Made by a program: the position numbers and the translations under genes. From positions 5,017 to 69,016 of the forward strand of contig JAZOBE010000009.1 of NCBI GenBank assembly GCA_045595785.1: a stretch of DNA of 64,000 nucleotides, given 5' to 3'. Shown here one piece after another: positions 1,501 to 62,421 of this stretch; positions within the stretch are counted from its first letter, which is position 1; the number at the start of each line of letters is the position of its first letter. The notes under the pieces are model-generated. The model was not told the origin of the DNA. It saw only the letters and a list, made by a program, of their open reading frames with translations, and did no database searches. The DNA comes from Eubacteriales bacterium. Its GTDB lineage: Bacteria > Bacillota > Clostridia > Oscillospirales > CAG-382.

Positions 1501-1574
1501 TTGCGTTTTTGGAACGCGGGGCCCCCGAGAAACCGCAGGTTTCTTGGGGTGCTTTCTGCGCCGAATGAACGCGC
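1501..1574. repeat. short mosaic palindromic element (boundary motif + P1 hairpin + terminal motif)
   Basis: TGCGTTTTTGG, then the P1 hairpin GGGGCCCCCGAGAAACCGCAGGTTTCTTGGGGTG (1518-1551), then CTTTCTGCGCCGAATGAACGCGC. All three modules recur elsewhere in the window. Confidence 0.8.
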
Positions 1575-5092: not shown

Positions 5093-5182
5093 TGGCGGAG
5101 AAGGAGGGATTTGAACCCTCGCGCCGGTTACCCGACCTACACCCTTAGCAGGGGCGCCTCTTCACCACTTGAGTACTTCTCC
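5093..5182 (-). tRNA. tRNA-Ser (anticodon GCU), encoded CCA
   Basis: Minus-strand read GGAGAAGTACTCAAGTGGTGAAGAGGCGCCCCTGCTAAGGGTG...GAGGGTTCAAATCCCTCCTTCTCCGCCA. It has a 7-bp acceptor stem, anticodon loop CTGCTAA, a long variable arm and a T-loop TTCAAAT. Confidence 0.9.
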
Positions 5183-5239
5183 GTAGGAAATTAAATTGTA
5201 AATCTTTTGCCGTTTGCCATTGTGGGGTGGTCTTTTTTC

Positions 5240-5273
5240 GGGGTCCCCGAGAAACCGAAGGTTTCTTGGGGTG
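5240..5273 (+). repeat. P1 hairpin module between the two tRNA genes
   Basis: GGGGTCCCCGAGAAACCGAAGGTTTCTTGGGGTG. Confidence 0.85.
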
Positions 5274-5282
5274 ATTGTCTTT

Positions 5283-5371
5283 TGGCGGAGAGAGTGGGAT
5301 TCGAACCCACGGCCCGTTGCCGGGTCACTGGTTTTCAAGACCAGCTCCTTAAACCGCTCGGACATCTCTCC
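5283..5371 (-). tRNA. tRNA-Ser (anticodon UGA), encoded CCA
   Basis: Minus-strand read GGAGAGATGTCCGAGCGGTTTAAGGAGCTGGTCTTGAAAACCAG...GTGGGTTCGAATCCCACTCTCTCCGCCA. It has anticodon loop CTTGAAA and a long variable arm. Confidence 0.9.
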
Positions 5372-5576: not shown

Positions 5577-8438
5577 ATGAAAAAAGCATTATCTCTTGTG
5601 CTCAGCTTGGTAATGGTTCTTTCGCTCTGCTCCGCATTCGGACTTGCAGTAAGCGCAGAAGAATCCGTTAACCTGGCAGCAGGTAAGTCCTACACTTATC
5701 CCACTGAAAGTCTTTATAAGCATTGGGATGCAAAGTGGGAAGTAAGCACCAAGGCTGACGTTGTTCTTACCGACGGCGACATAAGCGGCACTTACTATGG
5801 CGAAGGCATGTTCAATGGCTGGTCCAGCGCAGATATCGAGATCGTTGTTGACCTTGAAGCTGCTGCAAGCGTTGAATCCTTCAAGTTCTACGCATACGGC
5901 GGCAAAGACGGTATTTCCGAACCCGCTTCCATCGACATGAGCGTATCCGTAGACGGCGAAAACTGGACTGCAGTTAAATGCACTACCGACGTCGCTAAGA
6001 CCGAAGCTATCACCACTTGGGGTGAAGGCGGCGCATACAACTACGTATTCACCATGACTGCAGCTTCTGCAGTTGAGGCTCGTTACGTTAAGTACGCAAT
6101 CACCAGAAGCGGTCCTTTCATTTTCTGTCAGGAACTTGAAGTTTGGGGCGCAGCTCCTTCCGCAGCTCCCGAAGCAAAGACCCTTAACGTAGACGTAGTT
6201 AACTACTATGACTGGACCGATACCAACTTTGGTGGCGATCTTGGTTCTACTGCTCTTTCCGCAGGTCACATCGTTATGGCTGTTTCCGACACCGCTTCTA
6301 CCATTCCCGACAAGATAGGCGGCCCTTGGTTTACCTGGTGGTACAAGGTTCTGGCAGTTTGGGACGACGCAGCTAAGGCTTACGTTGTAACCGCTACCGA
6401 AGCATCCGGTACATCCGAATACGAGACCTGGACTCTCGGTGAAAACACTATCGCATTCATGTGCAATCTCAGCTTCTCCTCTTCCGAAGTTGCAGGCAAC
6501 GCAGATGACGCTGCTGTACTTGCCGGAATAGTTGTTGGCGATAAGATCACCATTAACGGCACCGATTGGGCAACCCTCGCAGCTACCTCCGGCGCTCTTA
6601 CCGGTGTTTCTCTCGGCATTAACGTTCCCGCTGAAGGCGGAAACGGCGGCACCGTTGTTATCACCAAGGGTGACAACGTTGCTCTTAACAAGACCTATAC
6701 CCTTTCCGGCTGCGGCGAGCGTGCTGCTTACTATGCAAAGCTTACCGACGGCGCTGCTAAGGATTCTATTTCTTACGATAGCAACGAATGGTTCGGCTTC
6801 TACTGCAACGGTGATGACGCTTCCGTTATCAACGCTCCCGACAAGCTCGGTACCGTTGTTATCGACCTCGGCAAGGTTACCGATCTTCACTCTGTAAGAC
6901 TCAACACCGTTAACAACACCGGTTCCGGTATCCCTGCTCCCGAATACATCAAGGTTTCCGTTTCTGATGACGGCGAGACCTATGGTGAAGCAGTTGAACT
7001 TCCCGTTCAGACTGTTGAAGACACTGCTTACTGGACCGAAGCTAACCTTTCCGGCAGCGGCCGTTACGTTAAGGTTGAAATTAAGCTCGGCGGCACCTTC
7101 GCATTCATCAATGAAATCGAAGTTTACGAAGCAGTTAAGACCATCGTTAACGACGGTCCTCAGGTTATCGTAGAAAAGATCACCGTAGACGGCGACCTTA
7201 CCGATACCGGTTGGAACAGCAAGGGCTGGACCAAGGTTTCCGGCAAGAACGGTTCTTGGCAGTATCCTACTCTTAAAGAAGTATCTGAAGGCGCTGAGAT
7301 CCCCACCTTCTCTTACAAGTATCAGCTCCGTGCTGACGACACCAAGCTTTACGGCGCACTTGTTCTTGACGGCGTTCACGAAGTAGTTGACGGCGAAGCT
7401 AAGAACATCAAGGTTCGTATCTGGTTCAGAGACAACGATGAAGCTACCGTATACTCCAGCTTCTATGATTTCGTTCTCGCTCCCGACGGAACTCTTACCA
7501 CCGCAGCTAAGTACAACACCTCTACCACTGAAAACAAGGGTGCTAACATCGAAAACACCACTCTTAACGCAGTTGCAAAGGTTGTAGACGGCAAGACCGT
7601 ATATGAATTCTCCGTAGACGTAGACGAAGTTACCGCTGACGGCAGCTTTGACTACTTCGTATGCCTCGAGCGTAAGCAGGGCGTTAACACCGGTACTCTG
7701 TACTATCCTGCAATTCCCGAGCTTAACGAAACTTCTCCTCACGGCAACCATCCTTGGCTCCTCTGGTACGTAGATAACGATGCAACCGTTAACGTAGCAG
7801 ATATCGCTCTCGGTGAGATCGTTGTTTCCGACAAGGAAGAAGCTGACACCTCTCTTATGGGCACCGCTCCCGCAGATCCCGCTTACAAGACCACCCTTTC
7901 CGTTGAAAACGGCTGGGAAGCAGGCAAGGATCTCCAGGTTAAGGTTACCATCGAGGCTCTTAAGGACGTTAACCTTGCACAGGTTATCTTCAACCTCTTC
8001 TATGACGCTAACGAAGTAACTCCCGTTCTTCCCGCAGAAGAAGATCTTGGCACTCTCGTAACCGCAGGCGCAGATTCCTGGAAGGATTCTTCCATCTTCT
8101 ACCTCGGTGAAACTGATGAAGAAGGCTACGGTCTCCTTATCGGCGCTCCCGGCACCACCAACAAGGATGATGCTCTCAACGCAGGCGATAAGATCGAGAT
8201 CACCCTTACCTTCAAGGTTCTTGATACCGCAAGCGGTCTCATCAACTTCCAGCTTTCCAATGACGAGCTTCTCGGCTACACCTACGAGACTCCCGAAGTT
8301 GCTGACGTTGCAGGCGAAGGCGCTTCTCTCGCAGTTGAAGCTGCAGTTCAGACCGGTGACGCAGGCATCTTCGTTATCGCTGCACTTGCACTCGTTGCAC
8401 TCATTGGTACCGCAGTAGTAATCAAAAAGCGCGCATAA
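5577..8438 (+). CDS. secreted cell-surface protein: two discoidin (F5/8 type C)-like carbohydrate-binding modules, a central beta-rich region, a C-terminal cohesin-like module and a C-terminal membrane anchor
   Basis: 953 aa. Signal peptide ends ..AVSAEE. Two segments end in the discoidin-type patterns RYVKYAI..FCQELEVWG and RYVKVEI..FINEIEVYE. Cohesin-like pattern LQVKVTIEALKDVNLAQVIFNLFYDANEVTPV...IEITLTFKVL. C-terminus is QTGDAG plus a hydrophobic helix plus KKRA. Confidence 0.75.
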   Translation: MKKALSLVLSLVMVLSLCSAFGLAVSAEESVNLAAGKSYTYPTESLYKHWDAKWEVSTKADVVLTDGDISGTYYGEGMFNGWSSADIEIVVDLEAAASVESFKFYAYGGKDGISEPASIDMSVSVDGENWTAVKCTTDVAKTEAITTWGEGGAYNYVFTMTAASAVEARYVKYAITRSGPFIFCQELEVWGAAPSAAPEAKTLNVDVVNYYDWTDTNFGGDLGSTALSAGHIVMAVSDTASTIPDKIGGPWFTWWYKVLAVWDDAAKAYVVTATEASGTSEYETWTLGENTIAFMCNLSFSSSEVAGNADDAAVLAGIVVGDKITINGTDWATLAATSGALTGVSLGINVPAEGGNGGTVVITKGDNVALNKTYTLSGCGERAAYYAKLTDGAAKDSISYDSNEWFGFYCNGDDASVINAPDKLGTVVIDLGKVTDLHSVRLNTVNNTGSGIPAPEYIKVSVSDDGETYGEAVELPVQTVEDTAYWTEANLSGSGRYVKVEIKLGGTFAFINEIEVYEAVKTIVNDGPQVIVEKITVDGDLTDTGWNSKGWTKVSGKNGSWQYPTLKEVSEGAEIPTFSYKYQLRADDTKLYGALVLDGVHEVVDGEAKNIKVRIWFRDNDEATVYSSFYDFVLAPDGTLTTAAKYNTSTTENKGANIENTTLNAVAKVVDGKTVYEFSVDVDEVTADGSFDYFVCLERKQGVNTGTLYYPAIPELNETSPHGNHPWLLWYVDNDATVNVADIALGEIVVSDKEEADTSLMGTAPADPAYKTTLSVENGWEAGKDLQVKVTIEALKDVNLAQVIFNLFYDANEVTPVLPAEEDLGTLVTAGADSWKDSSIFYLGETDEEGYGLLIGAPGTTNKDDALNAGDKIEITLTFKVLDTASGLINFQLSNDELLGYTYETPEVADVAGEGASLAVEAAVQTGDAGIFVIAALALVALIGTAVVIKKRA

Positions 8439-8446
8439 TTCGTTTC

Positions 8447-8695
8447 GCGTGCACATTCGGCGCAGAACCAAAAGCGCAGAATAAATAAAAAGTAAATTAG
8501 AGCTGTCTTTCACTCAATCGAGTGTGAGTCAGCTCTTTTTTGTAGAAATCCGCCTTCGTCGGATTTCATTTTTTAATTGCGCTTTTGTATAAATTTTCGC
8601 GTCGCTCGCTGTAGGTTACTACAGCTCCCGCTAGCGAAAATTCATTCTGCATCCAAATGTGTTACCCGAAACCCGCAAGCAGCGGTTTGTATGGG
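8447..8695. repeat. mosaic palindromic element (variant modules)
   Basis: Terminal motif CGGCGCAGAACCAAAAGCGCA, a strong hairpin at 8500-8540, a P5 hairpin GAAATCCG..CGGATTTC, TGCGCTTTTG, a P3 long hairpin with core GCTGTAGGTTACTACAGC, then TTCTGCATCCAAA. Confidence 0.75.
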
Positions 8696-8706: not shown

Positions 8707-8852
8707 CTTCAGGACGTTGGTTCGGTTAATTGTTGACATTAGTGTGGTGCGAACAGTTTGCGGGAGGGGAACGCAAAGCGTTAAACCCCTCCCCTACAGT
8801 TATCGAAACACCGTAACTTTTCTTGACATTTGTTTTGTTTACATATATAATA
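8707..8852 (+). repeat. promoter-carrying repeat, copy A
   Basis: The 132-nt core 8721-8852 matches 44841-44972 with 7 mismatches. It contains the hairpin GGGAGGGG-N17-CCCCTCCC and ends one base after a -10 hexamer. Confidence 0.9.
8823..8851 (+). promoter_or_regulatory. consensus sigma-A promoter TTGACA-17-TATAAT (inside repeat copy A)
   Basis: TTGACA at 8823-8828, TATAAT at 8846-8851. The ATG of the downstream gene is at 8885. Confidence 0.65.
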
Positions 8853-20606: not shown

Positions 20607-20779
20607 CCCCCAAAAAAGGTTTTTAGGATGCTGAGGGTGTTTCACGAAAAATCACCCCTGAAATCCGCACAATACCCACGCCGAAAGGCGAGGAGTTTTG
20701 GATGCAGAAGGAATTTTCGAGAGTGGGGAGCTGTAGTAACCTACTGCCCCCCGAACGAAAATTTCTTATGCGCCAAAAG
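20607..20779. repeat. mosaic palindromic element (P6 + P3 modules)
   Basis: 20607-20672 is the reverse complement of the insert unit seen twice at 61553-61737. 20696-20779 is a P3 long hairpin with core GCTGTAGTAACCTACTGC. Confidence 0.75.
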
Positions 20780-26890: not shown

Positions 26891-27023
26891 ACAGAACAAA
26901 AACGCAAACAGGAAAAGCTTTCTAAAGTGAACGTCATACACAAACGTGCGTTACTATGCACTTGCGTTTTTCCACAGCACATATAAGGAAAATTCCCGTA
27001 GAAAGCTCTACGGGAATTTTTTT
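26891..27023. repeat. minimal boundary-pair element plus hairpin acting as a bidirectional terminator
   Basis: CAAAAACGCA (26897-26906) and TGCGTTTTT (26963-26971) are in inverted orientation. Hairpin AAATTCCCGTAGA-aagc-TCTACGGGAATTT plus T7 lies at 26990-27023. A related hairpin is at 59175-59205. Confidence 0.65.
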
Positions 27024-33902: not shown

Positions 33903-35534
33903 ATGGCAGAGCTTAAAAACGGGGCTGTTAAGACCCCTGTGGTTACTATAGTTATGGATGGTGTGGGACTTTGTCCCCGTACGGAGGGTAACGCTGTTGC
34001 CGCCGCAGACACACCTACTTTAGATATGCTTATGGCGTCCTATCCCACCTTTTCACTTAAAGCCCACGGCACTGCCGTTGGTCTTCCCTCTGACGACGAT
34101 ATGGGTAACAGTGAGGTTGGTCATAACGCGCTGGGCGCAGGTCAGGTGTTTGCCCAGGGCGCAAAGCTGGTTTCCTCCGCTATTGAAAGCGGCAAGCTTT
34201 TCGCAAGTGACAGCTGGAAGAAGGTAGTTGCAAACGTTGGTGAAAACGGCACCCTTCATTTCCTCGGTCTGTTTTCCGATGGTAACGTTCATTCTCATAT
34301 CGACCATCTGAAGGCGCTTATCGAGAAAGCAAAGGCAGACGGCGTTAAGAAGGTAAGAGTTCACATCCTGCTGGACGGACGTGACGTTGGCGAGACCAGC
34401 GCCCTTGATTACGTTGACCCCTTTGAGGAATTCCTTGCTTCTCTGTGCGACGAGGGCTTTGACGCACGTATTGCATCCGGCGGCGGAAGAATGGTTATTA
34501 CTATGGACAGATACGAGGCTAACTGGTCTATGGTTGAAAAGGGCTGGCACACCCACGTTCTGGGCGAGGGCAGACAGTTTGCATCCGCACACGAGGCTAT
34601 CGTTACCTACCGTGAGGAGACAGGAAAGATCGACCAGGATCTTCCTCCCTTCGTTATTGCCGAGAACGGTACTCCCGTCGGCACCGTTGAGGATGGTGAC
34701 AGCGTAGTATTCTTTAACTTCCGCGGTGACAGAGCTATTGAAATATCCAAGGCCTTTGACGACAAGGATTTTGATAAGTTTGACCGTGTACGCAACCCCA
34801 AGGTTGTATACGCAGGCATGCTTGAATATGACGGAGATGCTCATATCCCCTCCATGTTCCTTGTATCTCCTCCCGAAATTTCCAACACCATGGGTGAATT
34901 TCTTGCTCAGCAGGGCGTTAACCAGTACGCGCTGAGCGAGACACAGAAATACGGCCACGTTACCTATTTCTGGAACGGAAACAGAAGTGGCAAGTTTAAC
35001 GAAGAACTTGAGACTTACGTTGAAGTTCCCTCTGACGTGGTTCCCTTTGAGCAGCGCCCCTGGATGAAGTGCGCAGAGATAACCGACCTGCTTATTGAAG
35101 CTCTTGAAAGCGGCAAGTACGGATATCTCCGTGTAAACTTCCCCAATGGCGATATGGTAGGACACACCGGCTCCTTTGCCGCTACCAAGATCTCTATGGA
35201 AGCGCTGGATCTGTGTCTGGCACGTATCCTTAAGGCTGTTGATAAGGCAGGCGCGGTTGCGGTAATTACCGCAGACCACGGCAATGCCGACGAAATGTAC
35301 GAATACAACAAGAAGAAGGGCGCAGTTGCTCTTAACGAGGACGGCACCCCCAAGGCAAAAACAAGCCATACTCTCAACCCCGTTCCCTGCATTATTTACG
35401 ATAACACCGGCAGAAACGATTACGTTTGCGTAGAAGGCGAATACGGTCTGGCAAACGTAGCGGCAACCGTTGTTACTCTGCTTGGTTATGAGCCCAAGGA
35501 AATGTGGGAAAAGTCTATGATAAATATAAAATGA
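33903..35534 (+). CDS. gpmI: 2,3-bisphosphoglycerate-independent phosphoglycerate mutase
   Basis: 543 aa. VMDGVGL and MGNSEVGHNALGAG (catalytic Ser region), plus metal-binding ADHGNADEM. Confidence 0.92.
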   Translation: MAELKNGAVKTPVVTIVMDGVGLCPRTEGNAVAAADTPTLDMLMASYPTFSLKAHGTAVGLPSDDDMGNSEVGHNALGAGQVFAQGAKLVSSAIESGKLFASDSWKKVVANVGENGTLHFLGLFSDGNVHSHIDHLKALIEKAKADGVKKVRVHILLDGRDVGETSALDYVDPFEEFLASLCDEGFDARIASGGGRMVITMDRYEANWSMVEKGWHTHVLGEGRQFASAHEAIVTYREETGKIDQDLPPFVIAENGTPVGTVEDGDSVVFFNFRGDRAIEISKAFDDKDFDKFDRVRNPKVVYAGMLEYDGDAHIPSMFLVSPPEISNTMGEFLAQQGVNQYALSETQKYGHVTYFWNGNRSGKFNEELETYVEVPSDVVPFEQRPWMKCAEITDLLIEALESGKYGYLRVNFPNGDMVGHTGSFAATKISMEALDLCLARILKAVDKAGAVAVITADHGNADEMYEYNKKKGAVALNEDGTPKAKTSHTLNPVPCIIYDNTGRNDYVCVEGEYGLANVAATVVTLLGYEPKEMWEKSMINIK

Positions 35535-35574
35535 GGAACGAGGAATGTGACGCGATGCGTTTCACGCACCGCTA

Positions 35575-35655
35575 AATGAGGAATTATTGTTGATTTTTGT
35601 TCCACGGAACAAAAATCCTCCTTCATTCATCATTTATCCTTTATCATTTCTCATT
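35575..35655 (+). repeat. 81-bp palindromic element, second family, copy 1
   Basis: AATGAGGAAT..hairpin TTTTTGTTCC-AC-GGAACAAAAA..CATTTCTCATT. Same architecture as the reverse complement of 62743-62822. Confidence 0.75.
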
Positions 35656-35675
35656 TATCATTTCAATTTAATGCT

Positions 35676-38315: not shown

Positions 38316-38596
38316 GAACGCGGAGTATTCGGCGCAGAAGAAATCTTTTACGAGCGGAATCTCCACCCCACAAAACCGAAGGTTTTGCGGGGAACCCCGG
38401 GAGCTGTACAAAGGTACAGCAAGCGAAGTAAAAGTTTCTACAAAAACGCAATGCAAATAAATTTTGAGGAAATCCTGCAAGGATTTCTACCGCAAAAATC
38501 GTAATTACCACGGACGGTCGGGGACGCCCGTCCCTACCGATTACCAAAATCTTTTAGTGTGTGCGTTTTTGGTTCTGCGTTGAATAAACGCGTTCC
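38316..38596. repeat. complete mosaic palindromic element with terminal inverted repeats
   Basis: Left TIR GAACGCGGAGTATTCGGCGCAGAA. P3 with a P1 (38364-38398) nested in its arm. CAAAAACGCA (38441-38450). P5 GAAATCCTGCAAGGATTTC. P2 GGACGGTCGGGGACGCCCGTCCC. TGCGTTTTTGG (38563). Right TIR TTCTGCGTTGAATAAACGCGTTCC. Confidence 0.85.
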
Positions 38597-40107: not shown

Positions 40108-40423
40108 GAAGGACGCAGGATATTTGGCGGGGTCCCCGAAAATCGAAGATTTTTGGGGTGCCTTTGGCGCAGAAAACGTCTTTCGCGAGCGTGGCGTAGT
40201 AACCTACGACTAGCGAAGCGAAAGCGGTTACAAAAACGCAAAACAAATAAATTTGCAGGAAATCCTGCAAGGATTTCTACCGATAAAACCGTGAGAAAAA
40301 CGGACGGTCGGGGACGCCCGTCCCTACGGTTAACGAAACCTTTTAGTATGTGCGTTTTTGGTTTCGGGGTCCCCGCAAATCGAAGATTTGTGGGGTGACT
40401 TGTGCGGCAAATAGGCGCGTCCC
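40108..40423. repeat. complete mosaic palindromic element
   Basis: TIR GAAGGACGCAGGATATTTGGCGG, P1 (40129-40160), P3 (40163-40240), CAAAAACGCA, P5, P2, TGCGTTTTTG (40351-40360), P1 (40366-40397), then TIR ..GCGGCAAATAGGCGCGTCCC. Confidence 0.9.
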
Positions 40424-41843: not shown

Positions 41844-42183
41844 GGAACGCGGCTATTTAACGCAGATCCAAAAACGCAAAAATTTATATAATTTCTGTTC
41901 AGCAAATTTCCGGTTGTAGGGACGGGCGTCCCCGAAGCGCACCCCACAAATGCTAATTCGCATTTGCGAGGACCCCGCTCCGACGCCCCGCATTCCCGCA
42001 GCCAAATAAGGTAAATTTTTGTAGAATAAATCTACAAAAATTATTTCACATGCGTTTTTGTAACCGCTTTCGCTTCGCTAGTCGTAGATTACTACGCCAC
42101 GCTTGCGAAAGACGTTTTCTGCGCCAAAGGCACCCCAAAAATCTTCGATTTTCGGGGACCCCGCTAAATATCCTGCGTTCTTC
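41844..42183. repeat. complete mosaic palindromic element (exemplar)
   Basis: TIR GGAACGCGGCTATTTAACGCAGATC, CAAAAACGCA, P2 + P1 double hairpin (41916-41999), P4 TTTTTGTAGAATAAATCTACAAAAA, TGCGTTTTTG (42051), P3, P1 (42131-42162), then TIR GCTAAATATCCTGCGTTCTTC. Confidence 0.9.
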
Positions 42184-42248
42184 AGACTTTTGGGTTTTAC
42201 AGCCGTGGCTTGCCCTTGCAATTTGATTATTATTTTCAGGTGATATAT

Positions 42249-44646: not shown

Positions 44647-44826
44647 TCGGGCGTGTATCTTGGGTCAGACCAAAAACGCAAAAGATACAATAAAATGTAT
44701 CGAAAACCGTAGGGGACGGCGTCCCCGACGTCCCGAAAACAAATAAAACTGCAGGAATCCGCTTGATGCGGATTCCTTTCATTTTATGTTCGCGTTTTTG
44801 TTCTGATTTGTTTTACCATCGCTCCC
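44647..44826. repeat. mosaic palindromic element
   Basis: ..GGTCAGACCAAAAACGCA, P2-like GTAGGGGACGGCGTCCCCGACGTCCC, P5-like GGAATCCGC-ttgat-GCGGATTCC, then CGCGTTTTTGTTCTGA... Confidence 0.8.
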
Positions 44827-44972
44827 TTCAGGCCATTTGCTTCGGTTAATTGTTGACGTTGGTGTAGTGCGAACAGTTTGCGGGAGGGGAACGCAAAGCG
44901 TTAAACCCCTCCCCTACAGTTATCGAAACACCGTAACATTTCTTGACATTTGCTCTTTTTACATATATAATA
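44826..44972 (+). repeat. promoter-carrying repeat, copy B
   Basis: See 8707-8852. The 132-nt core 44841-44972 has 7 mismatches to copy A. Confidence 0.9.
44943..44971 (+). promoter_or_regulatory. consensus sigma-A promoter TTGACA-17-TATAAT (inside repeat copy B)
   Basis: TTGACA at 44943-44948, TATAAT at 44966-44971. The downstream ATG is at 45001. Confidence 0.65.
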
Positions 44973-48663: not shown

Positions 48664-48784
48664 AACGCCGGATTTGGATGCAGAGCCAAAAACGCAACAA
48701 GTAAAAGGTTTCGATAATCGTAGGGACGAAGCGCACCCCACAAATGCTAATTCGCATTTGCAGGGACCCCGCTACGGGCGTCCG
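48664..48784. repeat. partial mosaic element (one terminus + double hairpin)
   Basis: CGCCGGATTTGGATGCAGAGCCAAAAACGCA, then GTAGGGACG..P1(48734-48770)..CGGGCGTCCG. Confidence 0.8.
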
Positions 48785-50714: not shown

Positions 50715-50797
50715 ATCAGACAATCAGTATTATAGACAATTGTTTCGTGCGAACAGTTTGATAACACCCACAGCTACAATCTTAAAGGATTATAAAA

Positions 50798-54108: not shown

Positions 54109-54242
54109 GAACGCAGAGCTTTTGGATGCAGAAAACGTTCTTTACGAGCGTGCTGTAGTAACCTACAGCCAGCGAAGTAAAGACGTTTACAAAAACTATA
54201 TTATATTTTGCGTTTTTGGGTCTGCATCCAAGTGCTCCGCCC
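54109..54242. repeat. mosaic palindromic element (TIR + P3 + boundary motif + TIR)
   Basis: GAACGCAGAGCTTTTGGATGCAGAA, P3 with core GCTGTAGTAACCTACAGC (54120-54196), then TGCGTTTTTGGGTCTGCATCCAAGTGCTCCGCCC. Confidence 0.85.
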
Positions 54243-56368: not shown

Positions 56369-56659
56369 TCCGCGTCTATTTGACGCAGATCCAAAAACGC
56401 AATGTTATATAGATGTTCGCTGTAATAAACACCCAATGTAGGGGCGATTCACAAACCACACCCCACAAATGCCATTGGCATTTGCGAGGACCCCGTGGAA
56501 TCGCCCGCTTATTCCACAGCAAAAATTAAGGTAAATTTTTGTAGAATAAATCTACAAAAATTATTTATTTGCGTTTTTGTAAACGTCTTTACTTCGCTAG
56601 CTGTAGATTACTACAGCACGCTCGTAAAGAACGTTTTCTGCGCCAAATATCCTGCGTCC
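56369..56659. repeat. complete mosaic palindromic element, same module order as 41844-42183
   Basis: TCCGCGTCTATTTGACGCAGATCCAAAAACGCA, double hairpin (56438-56508), P4 (identical to 42010-42046), TGCGTTTTTG (56570), P3 with core GCTGTAGATTACTACAGC, then TTCTGCGCCAAATATCCTGCGTCC. Confidence 0.9.
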
Positions 56660-59000: not shown

Positions 59001-59350
59001 TTCTGTGCGGCGGGGGCAAGCCACCCGCCCTACAAACACGCCACGGCTACCGGCTACAGCATCCAAAATCAGAACAGAGCGATGGTAAAAAGCTGTAAAA
59101 ACCATTTTTACGAGTGGGGAGCTGTAGTATTCTACTGCCCCCCGAGTAAAAACGGTTAGAAACGCAAAATTAAAAATTCCCGTAGATTTGTTCTACGGGA
59201 ATTTACCTTATATTTGATTGTGGGGAAGCGGGGCGTCGGAGCGGGGTCCCTGCAAATGCGGCCAGCATTTGAGGGGTGCGTTTCGAGGGCGCCGCCCCCT
59301 ACATTGGATGTTCGCCGAAGCAAACATTAAACATTTTTGCGTTTCGTTCT
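59001..59350. repeat. mosaic palindromic element cluster (variant modules)
   Basis: Hairpin GGCGGG..CCCGCC (59009-59030). P3 with core GCTGTAGTATTCTACTGC (59085-59165). GAAACGCA boundary variant. Hairpin ATTCCCGTAGA..TCTACGGGAAT (59175-59205). Double hairpin in opposite orientation (59226-59302, P1 at 59243-59278). TGCGTTTC boundary variant. Confidence 0.8.
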
Positions 59351-60018: not shown

Positions 60019-61419
60019 TTACTCCTTGTCTTCGGAAACGGTTTCTGTTTCCTTGCCGATATCGGAGGAACGCTTTGCGGGAAGCTCGCTTTCATCAACG
60101 GTAAGCATTTTTATTTTTCTTGTTCCGTTGTTTACGACCTCTGCCGCTTCGGAATCCGATACTTTTAATTTGTCGTAAGAATGATCGTCCTCATCAACCT
60201 CGATAACGATCTTCTTTTTCTTCTTTGCTTTGGTGACTTCCTTAACAGCTTCTTTTATCTCCTCCTCGGTAAAGGTGGGGATGGGATAAACCTTTGCAAA
60301 GATAAGCTGCTTGCCCATTGCGAACACGCTTCTCCAGATCCAGTAAACACCAAGTGCTGCCTGGAAGTTAAGCGCGAACCACGCGGACATAAGGGGCATC
60401 AACCACTCCATCATCTTGCCGCCGGGCATCTTTACGGGCTTGCCGTCTGCATCCAAAGACTGGGGAGCCAGCTTTCTGGAAAGCCATGCGGAAAGGAAGG
60501 AGGTGAGGAATACAAGAACGGGAACCAGCAGAAGCAGGTTGATGTTCTTGATATTAGGTGTTTCAAGCAGAGACAGACCTAACATATTGTAATTAGGCAG
60601 CTTCTGAATGGTGAGATACAGATTGGGTGTCTCCTCGAAATCGAAGGCTTCTTTAAGAATATCTTCGGTGGAACGGGAGGTAAGCTGGGTGCAAAGACCG
60701 TTTTCTTCAAGCACTTCGCGAATATTTTCATCAAAGTGGCGGGTAACCGCAACTACGTTATATTCGCTCTTTACACTCTTCTTGGCATCCTTGTGGATAT
60801 CCTCGTCGTCTGCCATATAATAGGTGTAAACGCCGGTCTCTTCATCAAAATAATACTTATCACACATATTCTTCTGATAAGTATTCATTTTATCGATAAG
60901 TCCCTTAACGGTATCGATCTTTTCCTGCTGTTCTTCGGTAGGATTTTCGATCTTGGAAAGAATATCCAACTCCTCGTTAAGGTCGGTCTTGACAGTCTCA
61001 CAAAGCTGGATTGAATTTTTATACATCAATTCAAGCTCACTGTCGTCAATAAACATAGTGTACTGGAGAGGAGAACGAACGATGGTATACAGCGCCATAA
61101 TGATGGGGAGCTGAATAAGGAGAGGTAAACAGCCGCCAAACATGTTGTAGCCGTTTTTCTGATACATCTCCTGTATCTCCATATTCATTTGCTGCTGGGA
61201 TTCTTTATCGGTTCTGTTCTTGTACTTGCGCTTGATAGCTATTTCCTTGGGACGAAGCTGCGCCTGCTTTACGGAAGACTTTTGCTGTTTGATGGAAAAG
61301 GGCAGCAAAATGATTTCCATAATAAGGGAGAAAAGGATGATGGCTACCCAGTAATAATTCTGGCCAACCCAAAGACATCCCTTCATTACATACCCTAAAG
61401 GTATGTATAAAATGTCCAT
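60019..61419 (-). CDS. yidC: YidC/Oxa1 family membrane insertase with a large internal insertion and charged C-terminal tail
   Basis: ATG at 61419 (MDILYIPLGYV..). Conserved LLPFSIKQQKS..QLRPK..MFGGCLPLLIQLPI. 466 aa. Confidence 0.88.
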   Translation of the reverse strand: MDILYIPLGYVMKGCLWVGQNYYWVAIILFSLIMEIILLPFSIKQQKSSVKQAQLRPKEIAIKRKYKNRTDKESQQQMNMEIQEMYQKNGYNMFGGCLPLLIQLPIIMALYTIVRSPLQYTMFIDDSELELMYKNSIQLCETVKTDLNEELDILSKIENPTEEQQEKIDTVKGLIDKMNTYQKNMCDKYYFDEETGVYTYYMADDEDIHKDAKKSVKSEYNVVAVTRHFDENIREVLEENGLCTQLTSRSTEDILKEAFDFEETPNLYLTIQKLPNYNMLGLSLLETPNIKNINLLLLVPVLVFLTSFLSAWLSRKLAPQSLDADGKPVKMPGGKMMEWLMPLMSAWFALNFQAALGVYWIWRSVFAMGKQLIFAKVYPIPTFTEEEIKEAVKEVTKAKKKKKIVIEVDEDDHSYDKLKVSDSEAAEVVNNGTRKIKMLTVDESELPAKRSSDIGKETETVSEDKE

Positions 61420-61493
61420 AATGTTCAATTTAATTTTCCCTTCAACATTGTGAGCTAATAAAAACAATTAACTCTTTGTTTTTCTTTTTTTGT

Positions 61494-61746
61494 GGGGTCC
61501 CCGAGAAACCGCAGGTTTCTTGGGGTGTTTTTTTTGTGGGGTCCCCGAGAAAGCGTTTTTACGGAATAATATACCGTCTGTATGGGGTGTTTCGTGAAAC
61601 ACCCATCGTTATCTAAAAACCTTTCTTGGGGCGTTTTTTTTGTGGGGTCCCCGAGAAAGCGTTTTTACGGAACAATATACCGTCTGTATGGGGTGTTTCG
61701 TGAAACACCCATTGTTATCTAAAAACCTTTCTTGGGGTTTTTCGGT
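61494..61746. repeat. P1 hairpin followed by two tandem 106-bp units, each a P1 hairpin split by a 69-nt nested insert
   Basis: Intact P1 at 61494-61527. Units begin at 61535 and 61641 (period 106) and read GGGGTCCCCGAGAAA-[insert]-CCTTTCTTGGGG. Confidence 0.9.
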
Positions 61747-61955
61747 ACCGGGTCATAACCGCAATTCTTATTAAACGGGTTGCAGCGGAGGATACGCCAC
61801 GCCCCTAAAAAAATGCCGATGATAACACCCCATTCTTCAATAGCCTCAATAGTATACTGAGAGCAAGAGGGGTGAAAACGGCAATTCCGACCCAGACTCG
61901 GTGAAACGTATTTCTGATAGAATTTTATTGGTGCGGTAAAAAGCTTTTTGAACAT
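61719..61955 (-). CDS. yidD: membrane protein insertion efficiency factor YidD
   Basis: [34 protein letters not shown]. The last 6 codons and the stop lie inside the repeat. Confidence 0.9.
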
Positions 61956-61960
61956 AAAAA

Positions 61961-62329
61961 TTAATTACCTATACCGTCATCGCAAAGGAGTGCCGCCCCA
62001 ACCAATACCTTTTTAAGCTGCTTTTCCACTACGGCGCTTGACGCGGTCATACAGCTTTGCCGGGCGACTGCCACTATAATATAACCATCCTTTACTTGCG
62101 GATAAAGACTGCGGAACGCCGCCCTTATTATCCGCTTTGCACGGTTTCTTTGTACCGCTTTACCCCGTTTCTTGGATACGGTTATTCCAAGACGGGTTTT
62201 GTTTTGGGCGTTTCGGTCTTTAATAACATAAACCGCCACGCAGGGCTGGACGTAGCATTTTCCTCTGCCGTACGCCAAGCCGAAAAGGTGATTTTGCTTT
62301 AACGAAGTAACTTTTTTTGTTTCCTGCAA
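61961..62329 (-). CDS. rnpA: ribonuclease P protein component
   Basis: TTG start with RBS AAGAGGTG 7 nt upstream. [22 protein letters not shown]. Located between rpmH and yidD. Confidence 0.9.
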
Positions 62330-62389: not shown

Positions 62390-62421
62390 ACCCCAAGAAA
62401 CTTTCCGTTTCTTGGGGAACC
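62390..62421 (-). repeat. P1 hairpin module between rpmH and rnpA
   Basis: ACCCCAAGAAACTTTCCGTTTCTTGGGGAACC. Confidence 0.75.

Follow-up and report, generated by a model that had tools for sequence, protein, structure and literature searches.

What kind of element fills so many of the gene spacers in this stretch of DNA, and by what means did it spread? The stretch, 64,000 nucleotides of contig JAZOBE010000009.1 from a Eubacteriales bacterium (hereafter the window), has 16 intergenic sites assembled from palindromic modules, named P1 to P5, together with boundary and end sequences. Each of these sites is a copy, whether full, shortened, truncated or decorated, of one composite element family that resembles the bacterial interspersed mosaic elements (BIMEs) formed of repetitive extragenic palindromes (REPs). 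The evidence moderately favors a REP/BIME-type system that is handled as folded single-stranded DNA by a REP-associated tyrosine transposase (RAYT, or TnpA_REP) acting in trans.

The modules named in the original prediction were found at 16 out of 16 sites. The 10-mer CAAAAACGCA has 14 exact occurrences in the window, none of them outside the sites, and the end-plus-boundary pattern GCAGANCCAAAAACGCAA gives seven matches with up to two mismatches, compared to 0.01 expected by chance. With the right half of the element as the query, nhmmer found nine copies in the window and 71 in the window and the related DNA examined. Repeat finding in the window groups the shared pieces into families D2, D5-D7, D9-D14, D16, D19 and D20. 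There are eight P2-type, nine P3 and about 14 P1 copies within the 64 kb, extragenic save for the end of yidD. The summed length of the 16 sites is 3,095 nt, or 4.8% of the window, and they constitute about one third of the approximately 9.5 kb that is not covered by long open reading frames (ORFs). Between the upstream stop codon and an element lie 0-38 nt, and between the end of the element and the next start 9-83 nt. The flanking genes are mostly co-directional, with the elements situated inside operons.

The earlier description of these repeats as interspersed, non-coding, palindromic and mutually nested is confirmed, as is their placement in spacers except at the 3' end of yidD (61719-61955, minus strand), where an arm of P1 encodes the final seven codons and the stop. 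In agreement with the same prediction, the ORFs beginning at 48674 and 56569 start falsely within elements. Rfam covariance models at the gathering score passed two tRNAs in the window and matched no element, and no match was found on the elements between 38 and 62.5 kb at E values up to 1.

The family is based on one canonical unit of about 290 nt (250-300 nt), which has a single fixed module order and is found on either strand. The order is end hairpin, CCAAAAACGCA, AT-rich spacer, P2, P4 or P5, TGCGTTTTTG, P3, end hairpin. The boundary sequence after the left end is CCAAAAACGCAAAA and that ahead of P3 is TGCGTTTTTGTA. Derivatives of the unit comprise 134-nt short forms and truncated copies. 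The sequence of end, left boundary, P2, P4 or P5, right boundary, P3 and end recurs in the window and in eight related metagenome-assembled genomes (MAGs), as in a composite BIME. The modules had been thought to vary in order, and 40108-40423 to have an order of its own. Instead the order is fixed, and this site, like 38316-38596, follows the canonical order when its minus strand is read. The plus-strand order is seen at 41844, 56369 and 8447; the sites at 1501, 20607, 26891, 44647, 48664 and 59001 are partial or rearranged. Nor are all sites end-bounded elements, as had been supposed. About ten are end-bounded units or fragments of these, whereas 5240 and 62390 are solitary P1 hairpins and 61494-61746 is P1 in tandem with "long P1" units, in which P1 encloses a GTAT/GTAG-type hairpin.

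When folded as single-stranded DNA, the exemplar at 41844-42183 is predicted to form a multi-branched structure closed by its two ends (-67 kcal/mol, z = -5.2). The ends are imperfect inverted sequences of about 22-30 nt that pair in the fold. Each is a small hairpin itself, for instance GCGTC-TATTT-GACGC within GGAACGC..GCAGA, and shows compensatory variants with no fixed protein-binding sequence. No consistent target-site duplication surrounds the backbone in the window or at the related loci. ATCTGAT flanks the site at 54109 on both sides, but it is near-palindromic and hence ambiguous. The parts of the exemplar are the following.

41844-41866, plus strand: left end GGAACGCGGCTATTTAACGCAGA, a small hairpin, which pairs with 42118-42180 in the DNA fold
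41867-41882, plus strand: left inner boundary TCCAAAAACGCAAAAA
41916-41991, plus strand: P2, a REP hairpin tagged with GTAG and split in its loop by P1
41940-41977, minus strand: P1 guest within the P2 loop, just past ..CCCCGA
42013-42042, both strands: P4 hairpin TTTTTGTAG-AATAAAT-CTACAAAAA, with GTAG on both strands
42051-42062, plus strand: right inner boundary TGCGTTTTTGTA, complementary to the left one
42063-42117, plus strand: P3, a long hairpin with a GTAG-ATTA-CTAC tip
42118-42180, plus strand: right end, split by P1, with TTTGGC/TTTAGC duplicated at the flanks (uninterrupted end at 56637-56659)
42131-42163, minus strand: P1 inside the right end
42181-42187, plus strand: TTCAGAC tail, conserved sequence that runs on beyond the end in many copies

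Uninterrupted P2 copies lie at 38510-38537 and 40300-40327 (minus strand) and at 44709-44736 (plus strand). P1 is nested in P2 also at 48720-48784, 56438-56510 and 59225-59302, as well as in the RAYT genes of two sister genomes. The other sites are as follows.

1501-1574, minus strand: end fragment consisting of boundary, P1 (1518-1549, plus strand) and end
5240-5273, plus strand: solitary P1, with a tRNA gene on either side of its spacer
8447-8695, plus strand: canonical copy that has P5 (GTAG-AAATCCG..) and P3, its left end degenerate
20607-20779, minus strand: P3 and end half, with another hairpin
26891-27023, plus strand: boundary pair without ends, and a CCCGTAG..CTACGGG hairpin
38316-38596, minus strand: full canonical copy with P5 in the P4 slot and P1 (38366-38398) in one P3 arm
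40108-40423, minus strand: full canonical copy with two P1 guests (40129-40160 and 40366-40397)
44647-44826, plus strand: boundary pair, P2 and a P5-like hairpin, without P3
48664-48784, plus strand: 5' fragment consisting of left end, boundary and P2 holding P1
50581-50714, plus strand: short 134-nt form without the P2/P4 segment
54109-54242, minus strand: short 134-nt form without the P2/P4 segment
56369-56659, plus strand: full canonical copy, its sole P1 in the P2 loop
59001-59350, minus strand: composite of P2b (GTAGGGCGGG..), P3, a CCCGTAG..CTACGGG hairpin and P2 holding P1
61494-61746, plus strand: P1, then two 106-nt tandem long P1 units, the last arm encoding the yidD C-terminus
62390-62421, minus strand: solitary P1 with a degenerate head

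The two tRNA genes separated by the solitary P1 are both on the minus strand (5096-5371). The yidD gene is clustered with yidC and rnpA on the minus strand at 60022-62329, an arrangement that suggests an origin-proximal region.

The nature of the modules is indicated by the tetranucleotide GTAG. Directly 5' of perfect hairpins in the DNA of the clade, GTAG is the top enriched 4-mer (13.4-fold), and its density in the elements is 3.6-fold that of the remaining window. P2 consists of GTAG, a GG-rich stem of 6-9 bp, the sequence (G/A)CGTCC(T/C)CG(A/T/G), the returning stem and GC or GT, with a loop of 4-10 nt. In the window and related DNA it has 47 distinct variants in 184 instances overall. Among 289 distinct P2 sequences that were picked by the loop core alone, pairing not being used as a criterion, the commonest 5' tag by far is GTAG (71/289). 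A perfect 6-bp stem is present in 57 of the 289, compared to 3.1 in shuffled sequences (maximum 9), and these 57 comprise 11 different stem sequences. The stem of P2 is variable with its pairing kept, as is characteristic of the REP superfamily. GTAG is also at the foot of P5, a GTAG + AAATCC hairpin. Both P2 and P5 have the form of GTAG-tagged REPs, namely a palindrome of 20-40 nt with an unpaired GTAG 5' of the stem; P1 and the end hairpins do not. In P4, in the tip of P3 and in the CCCGTAG..CTACGGG hairpins, GTAG and CTAC pair with each other inside the stem.

The long hairpin P3 is likewise maintained by compensatory change. In its alignment 96.9% of the cells are paired and double changes occur in 9 of the 22 pairs. 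The covariation score is 0.331, compared to 0.152 in shuffles, none of 500 reaching 0.331, and it is at most 0.093 with slid partners. The main helix has eight covarying pairs without one-sided G-U intermediates, which favors a constraint on DNA over one on RNA. Such a GTAG signature on hairpins is indicative of HUH chemistry. The original prediction had allowed that the modules might belong to an already described repeat family. This is so in part, since the GTAG modules fall in the GTAG-tagged REP superfamily (PMC3733652) and the candidate enzyme described below fits a known TnpA_REP subclass (PMC6006769), but the sequences match no Rfam family.

The window contains no mobilizing gene, as had been predicted. 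Transposase, integrase and RAYT families are absent among its approximately 50 ORFs, in which Pfam identified housekeeping genes only. The earlier account left the mobilizing factor unnamed; it can now be given a candidate, because P2 is the same REP as that inside the RAYT/TnpA_REP gene of sister genomes. A phmmer scan of all ORFs of the window and the related loci, using IS200 TnpA and YafM queries, matched a single ORF, in CAZAJX (locus L087). A RAYT-family protein is present in four of the eight MAGs of the clade (CAZAJX, JAZNZY, JAFYKY and JAGAKP). In three of the clade MAGs its site is syntenic, in the order OLE, membrane protein, RAYT, oapA-like gene, dxs; JAGAKP has two copies, away from the OLE-oapA site. 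The best match among solved structures is E. coli TnpA_REP (4ER8, E 3.9e-7). The candidate has the motifs PNHIHLL (NHIH), IWQSRF (WQ) and YIENNP, to be compared with NH[IFV]H, WQ and YIxNNP in TnpA_REP subclass 2.4 (PMC6006769). As placed by motifs, not phylogeny, the candidate fits this subclass.

The RAYT gene carries the P2 variant of the window in frame (GTAG GGACGG gcgtccccga CCGTCC). In two genomes (L126 and L127) the gene also has a second P2, which is inverted and holds P1. Among 75 homologues that are more distant, the gene itself has 4.0 GTAG hairpins per kb, compared to 0.26 per kb in the DNA up to 400 nt away and 0.08 per kb beyond. Each strand has one such hairpin, one before and the other after the HUH motif, at conserved positions. 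These hairpins are the most conserved DNA of the gene, the column identity being about 0.9 compared to about 0.7 elsewhere. Genes with such an inverted in-frame REP pair were observed in about 80 MAGs, mostly of Oscillospirales or unclassified Clostridia (L126-L205; e.g. L126:1376-1963 and L131:3001-3480). The arrangement is REPIN-like. In-frame REP insertions within tnpA_REP genes are a hallmark of subclass 2.4 (PMC6006769), so that the in-gene REPs represent known biology in a new lineage. It is conceivable, though quite doubtful, that the inverted pair around the HUH motif is a self-targeting switch by which the enzyme excises or rearranges its own catalytic core.

Related loci, retrieved by matching the element itself, show that the family recurs in eight related MAGs of uncultured Clostridia/Oscillospiraceae from ruminant guts (JAZSIT, JAFQAP, JAZNZY, JAGCNA, JAFOBR, JAFYKY, JAGAKP and CAZAJX). 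In unrelated phyla there were single matches, about the chance number for 17 specified bases as estimated from the collection size; five single matches in viral contigs are also at about chance level by the same estimate.

Close relatives differ by insertions, swaps and deletions of modules. In the rsfS-leuS spacer the exemplar is present in near-identical strains (97.7-98.8% identical) with small loop indels; a more distant lineage and other MAGs have a heptamer-repeat element there instead. Locus L123 (94% identical) has an additional P1 at the 54109 site, absent in the window. Locus L125 (96%) has a P2-type GTAG hairpin at the 20607 site where the window has another hairpin. Locus L091 of JAZSIT (95.7%) carries a long P1 unit of 140 nt as an insertion immediately past the 58962 stop codon, and a different GTAG hairpin opens its 59001 composite. 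The P2b loop holds P1 in L210 and L206 but not in the orthologous L208. The OLE-oapA spacer contains the canonical unit in L208, L210 and L211, only a left-end remnant in L212 (JAZSIT), and is an empty 45-nt spacer in the outgroup L213. No clean empty sites were found for the backbone, the orthologous spacers holding other elements or remnants.

Several further features were observed at these loci. When 54109-54242 is compared with L034:2140-2440 and L076:795-1150, the interior is reversed and the end near the downstream gene looks conserved. The interior may have been inverted between the inverted ends, which resemble each other too closely to tell. The OLE RNA (RF01071, about 385 bits) is situated upstream of the oapA-like gene (L206:1714-2360, L208:3031-3677, L212:520-1165), and between the two lies, depending on the genome, either a composite element or the RAYT gene accompanied by that of a small membrane protein. 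The heptamer-repeat element belongs to a second repeat family, which is found at 35526-35668 of the window and at L083:5840-5990, L085, L103, L120:545-680 and the flanks of L128. In it, a central hairpin GATTTTTG..CAAAAATC is preceded by about four heptamers in tandem (GAGGAAN/GAACGAT..) and followed by about four to six inverted ones. It stops just upstream of the ribosome-binding site of a gene, and its arms co-vary between copies. In relatives it takes the place of the composite at orthologous spacers, and it flanks several RAYT genes.

If a RAYT handles the elements, the hairpins would fold when the DNA becomes single-stranded, as in replication or repair. The enzyme, an HUH-tyrosine protein encoded elsewhere in the genome, would recognize the GTAG foot together with the stem. 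Cleavage and rejoining at the foot would then spread, swap and delete hairpin modules, and the copies would survive only in intergenic spacers or in tolerant protein termini and loops. TnpA_REP is known to cleave and rejoin cognate folded single-stranded REPs in vitro, for which GTAG is required (PMC8266576). The hairpin-for-hairpin swaps between relatives would be the expected product of such cleavage and strand transfer at GTAG feet. We infer that a RAYT moves the modules, that the genome of the window has one, and that one enzyme serves both P1 and the backbone. As the elements lie inside operons they are also transcribed, and they probably act secondarily as stable RNA stem-loops.

A number of observations weigh against this interpretation. 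The backbone ends have no GTAG tag. P1 has none either, and it is flanked by an excess of duplications that HUH transposition does not predict; transposition of the IS200/IS605 type leaves no target duplication. The copies within the genome are only about 78-80% identical, and a divergence of about 20% implies that there has been no recent burst. Candidate RAYT proteins match NCBIfam REP_Tyr_transpos (NF047646) with E values of 1e-14 to 1e-19 and 53-70 bits, under the 80-bit equivalog cut-off, and Pfam Y1_Tnp with 21.7, compared to a cut-off of 23. The retrieval of related loci by an element match biases the element densities there upward. Furthermore, no RAYT was found at the OLE-oapA site, which is syntenic, in JAZSIT, the closest relative, or in JAFQAP or JAFOBR, and a metagenome scan with the RAYT of the clade gave best matches that are 51-55% identical and have no link to the window strain, negatives that are limited by MAG incompleteness and by assembly breaks at repeats. 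The enzyme may be absent from the lineage of the window, in which case the copies are relics.

Four public short metagenome contigs with genes of the window (L117, L118, L122 and L124) end within the repeats or at their edge, indicating that the elements break short-read assemblies. Few contigs were retrieved by exact protein identity, and many of these stop at an element. Such breaks may cause repeat-bearing genes, among them RAYT, to drop from MAGs.

The module that fits least well is P1, a hairpin of 32-36 nt with the form GGGGTCCCC-stem-GGGGTG, which is a separate guest that is inserted into other modules or stands alone. Its conserved head is CGGGGT(T)CCCC (CGGGGTCCCC) and its conserved tail GGGGTG. 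Of 43 distinct bodies, 42 have at least nine stacked pairs, and 20 different stem segments occur with full compensation. The stems contain 40 G-T pairs compared to two A-C, the G-T pairs being concentrated at stem positions 4-5, so that one particular strand folds. Both orientations occur within same-strand operons. Of the P1 copies nested in units of the window, four are situated in P2 loops (41940, 48736, 56455, 59243), two inside the right-end hairpin (40129, 42131), two where the boundary meets the end (1518, 40366) and one in an arm of P3 (38366). Overall P1 is inserted into loops and T-rich spots: in P2 loops just after TCGA, in end-hairpin loops, between boundary and end, and in heptamer elements. 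Direct repeats of at least 4 nt flank 22 of 62 P1 insertions, where 7.3 are expected (maximum 15), and repeats of at least 5 nt flank 12 of 62, where 3.0 are expected. They vary from 4 to 9 nt without a fixed length and are missing in about half of the copies. Filled and empty sites can be paired for TTTGGC in the end hairpin (40128 compared with 56659) and for CTTGCCC in the P2b loop (L210 compared with the orthologous L208).

It is conceivable, and compatible with RAYT handling of the backbone, that P1 is a separate system, in which another enzyme or template switching in replication inserts it into hairpin loops as a parasite of REP elements. P1 has its own head and tail and no GTAG, its insertions come with target duplications, and it is present in Oscillospirales MAGs outside the clade that bears the backbone. 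We consider this tentative, as P1 co-occurs everywhere with GTAG modules, including those of the RAYT gene, no candidate enzyme for it was found, and the duplication signal comes partly from T-rich flanks. In a more specific and quite doubtful form, P1 would be a hyperparasite, a hairpin whose insertion is specific to loops and ends in folded repeats other than itself. If true, P1 would leave its variable duplications of 4-9 nt by neither the standard HUH route (none) nor the DDE route (fixed), and would be among the smallest mobile DNAs, guided by the structure of its target.

Alternatively, the elements could be immobile intercistronic stem-loops selected by the host as mRNA stabilizers, terminators, processing sites or nucleoid-protein sites, with the RAYT lost and the elements fossils or exapted relics, while ordinary deletion, slippage and recombination would account for what differs between relatives. 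The close placement after stop codons and before starts in mostly co-directional operons agrees with this, as do the divergence of the copies, the failure to find RAYT for the lineage of the window or its closest relative, and the decay by deletion that is seen in L212. There are also 49 terminator-like matches compared to 25 in shuffles. However, few hairpins precede T-runs, and most module hairpins are not intrinsic terminators, the few that qualify including P1 at 61494 and P5 at 44753. Between 38 and 58 kb, five elements are on the plus and three on the minus strand within same-strand operons, which argues against a strand-specific RNA role, and the main helix of P3 covaries without G-U intermediates. 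Insertions with a duplicated target, and hairpin swaps at the same junction in relatives that are 94-96% identical, exceed simple decay. We regard this immobile alternative as unlikely.

Rather improbable, too, is the explanation by classical miniature inverted-repeat transposable elements (MITEs), in which deletions in insertion sequences (IS) with a DDE transposase would have produced the unit of about 290 nt and, independently, P1, with that transposase recognizing the terminal inverted repeats in trans and the GTAG hairpins being passengers: inverted ends do close the fold and P1 does have flanking repeats in excess with clean filled and empty pairs, but the backbone lacks a consistent duplication, the P1 duplications are variable and often missing, the ends are hairpins with compensatory variants, and no IS or transposase ORF with these ends was found in the window or in about 2 Mb of related DNA examined. 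What survives of the original framing of the whole unit by terminal inverted repeats is the presence of inverted ends; a fixed duplication was not found, nor was a parent IS in the DNA examined.

Among the analogies that had been offered, REP/BIME is the right one, as P2, P5 and related hairpins have the tested features of GTAG-tagged REPs and the composite has the structure of a BIME. As in the E. coli REP/BIME and TnpA_REP system, there are short palindromes with a GTAG foot, linker motifs and mosaic units between genes inside operons, and hundreds of copies per genome would be expected, with the enzyme encoded once, elsewhere in the genome. The unit here differs from an E. coli BIME in having a fixed order and a length of about 290 nt, in being closed by its own inverted end hairpins, in having three hairpin types rather than alternating Y and Z REPs, and in having a guest hairpin, P1, and a host in the Clostridia. 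The subclass 2.4 REPtrons (Quentin et al. 2018, PMC6006769; Bertels group 4) share the protein motifs, the in-frame REPs, and long, GC-footed REPs of GTAG..CTAC form. That subclass has been described mainly from Cyanobacteria and Bacteroidetes (PMC6006769), whereas the genes found here have REPs both before and after the HUH motif and come mostly from Oscillospirales and unclassified Clostridia.

The Pseudomonas REPIN-RAYT system is similar in its unit of about 100-300 nt folding to one long hairpin, its long-lived diverged copies, and an enzyme encoded once, at a syntenic site, and inherited vertically. A REPIN, however, pairs one REP with an inverted copy of itself. In the present unit the paired ends are without GTAG, and the GTAG hairpins are internal and differ in type; the unit is not a REPIN because its ends are not the REP. 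Rickettsia palindromic elements (RPEs) similarly place hairpin repeats in frame in coding sequence, as in the yidD C-terminus and the RAYT gene of relatives, but the present copies are nearly all intergenic and RPEs are in the CGTC-tagged group (PMC3733652). Correia elements, BOX elements and MITEs are also small, non-autonomous, intergenic, and modular or bounded by inverted repeats. The present backbone differs in having no TA or fixed-length duplication and no parent IS; BOX and Correia elements are set apart by description, not by sequence.

A neighboring 136-nt repeat lies directly downstream of composite elements, at 8717-8852 and 44837-44972 (94% identical), with a partial copy at 50729-50760. 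A further hairpin with a GTAG tag (GTAGGGGAGGGG.., minus strand) lies within it. In the copy at 44837, at least, a perfect TTGACA-17-TATAAT promoter (44943-44971) points at the next gene, and the repeat may be a mobile promoter module. Elsewhere in the window, the ORF at 564-1466, which has no Pfam match, contains a coding 15-nt tandem repeat at 675-1009 with at least about 12 units, rich in Ser, Glu, Pro and Lys. Two ORFs of about 950 codons each, 5577-8438 (plus strand) and 5589-8513 (minus strand), overlap over nearly their whole length; the latter is probably spurious, since a Pfam match (F5/8 type C) was obtained only for the plus-strand product.

To our knowledge, REP/BIME-RAYT systems have been studied almost exclusively in Proteobacteria and Cyanobacteria. 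Firmicutes are not listed in the 2013 survey of GTAG repeats (PMC3733652), and Clostridia are mentioned just for group 1 RAYTs (PMC5581495). The host in the Clostridia, the fixed unit closed by its own end hairpins and the nested guest P1 are new here. A dense, layered system of the REP/BIME type in uncultured Clostridia of the ruminant gut widens the taxonomic reach of these elements. They affect annotation and assembly, through their share of the spacer DNA, the broken short-read assemblies, the false ORF starts and the C-terminus of one protein, and they could be used as strain markers in metagenomes. The fixed unit, the P1 duplications and the hairpin swaps are concrete substrates for studying the remodeling of REPs by HUH enzymes.

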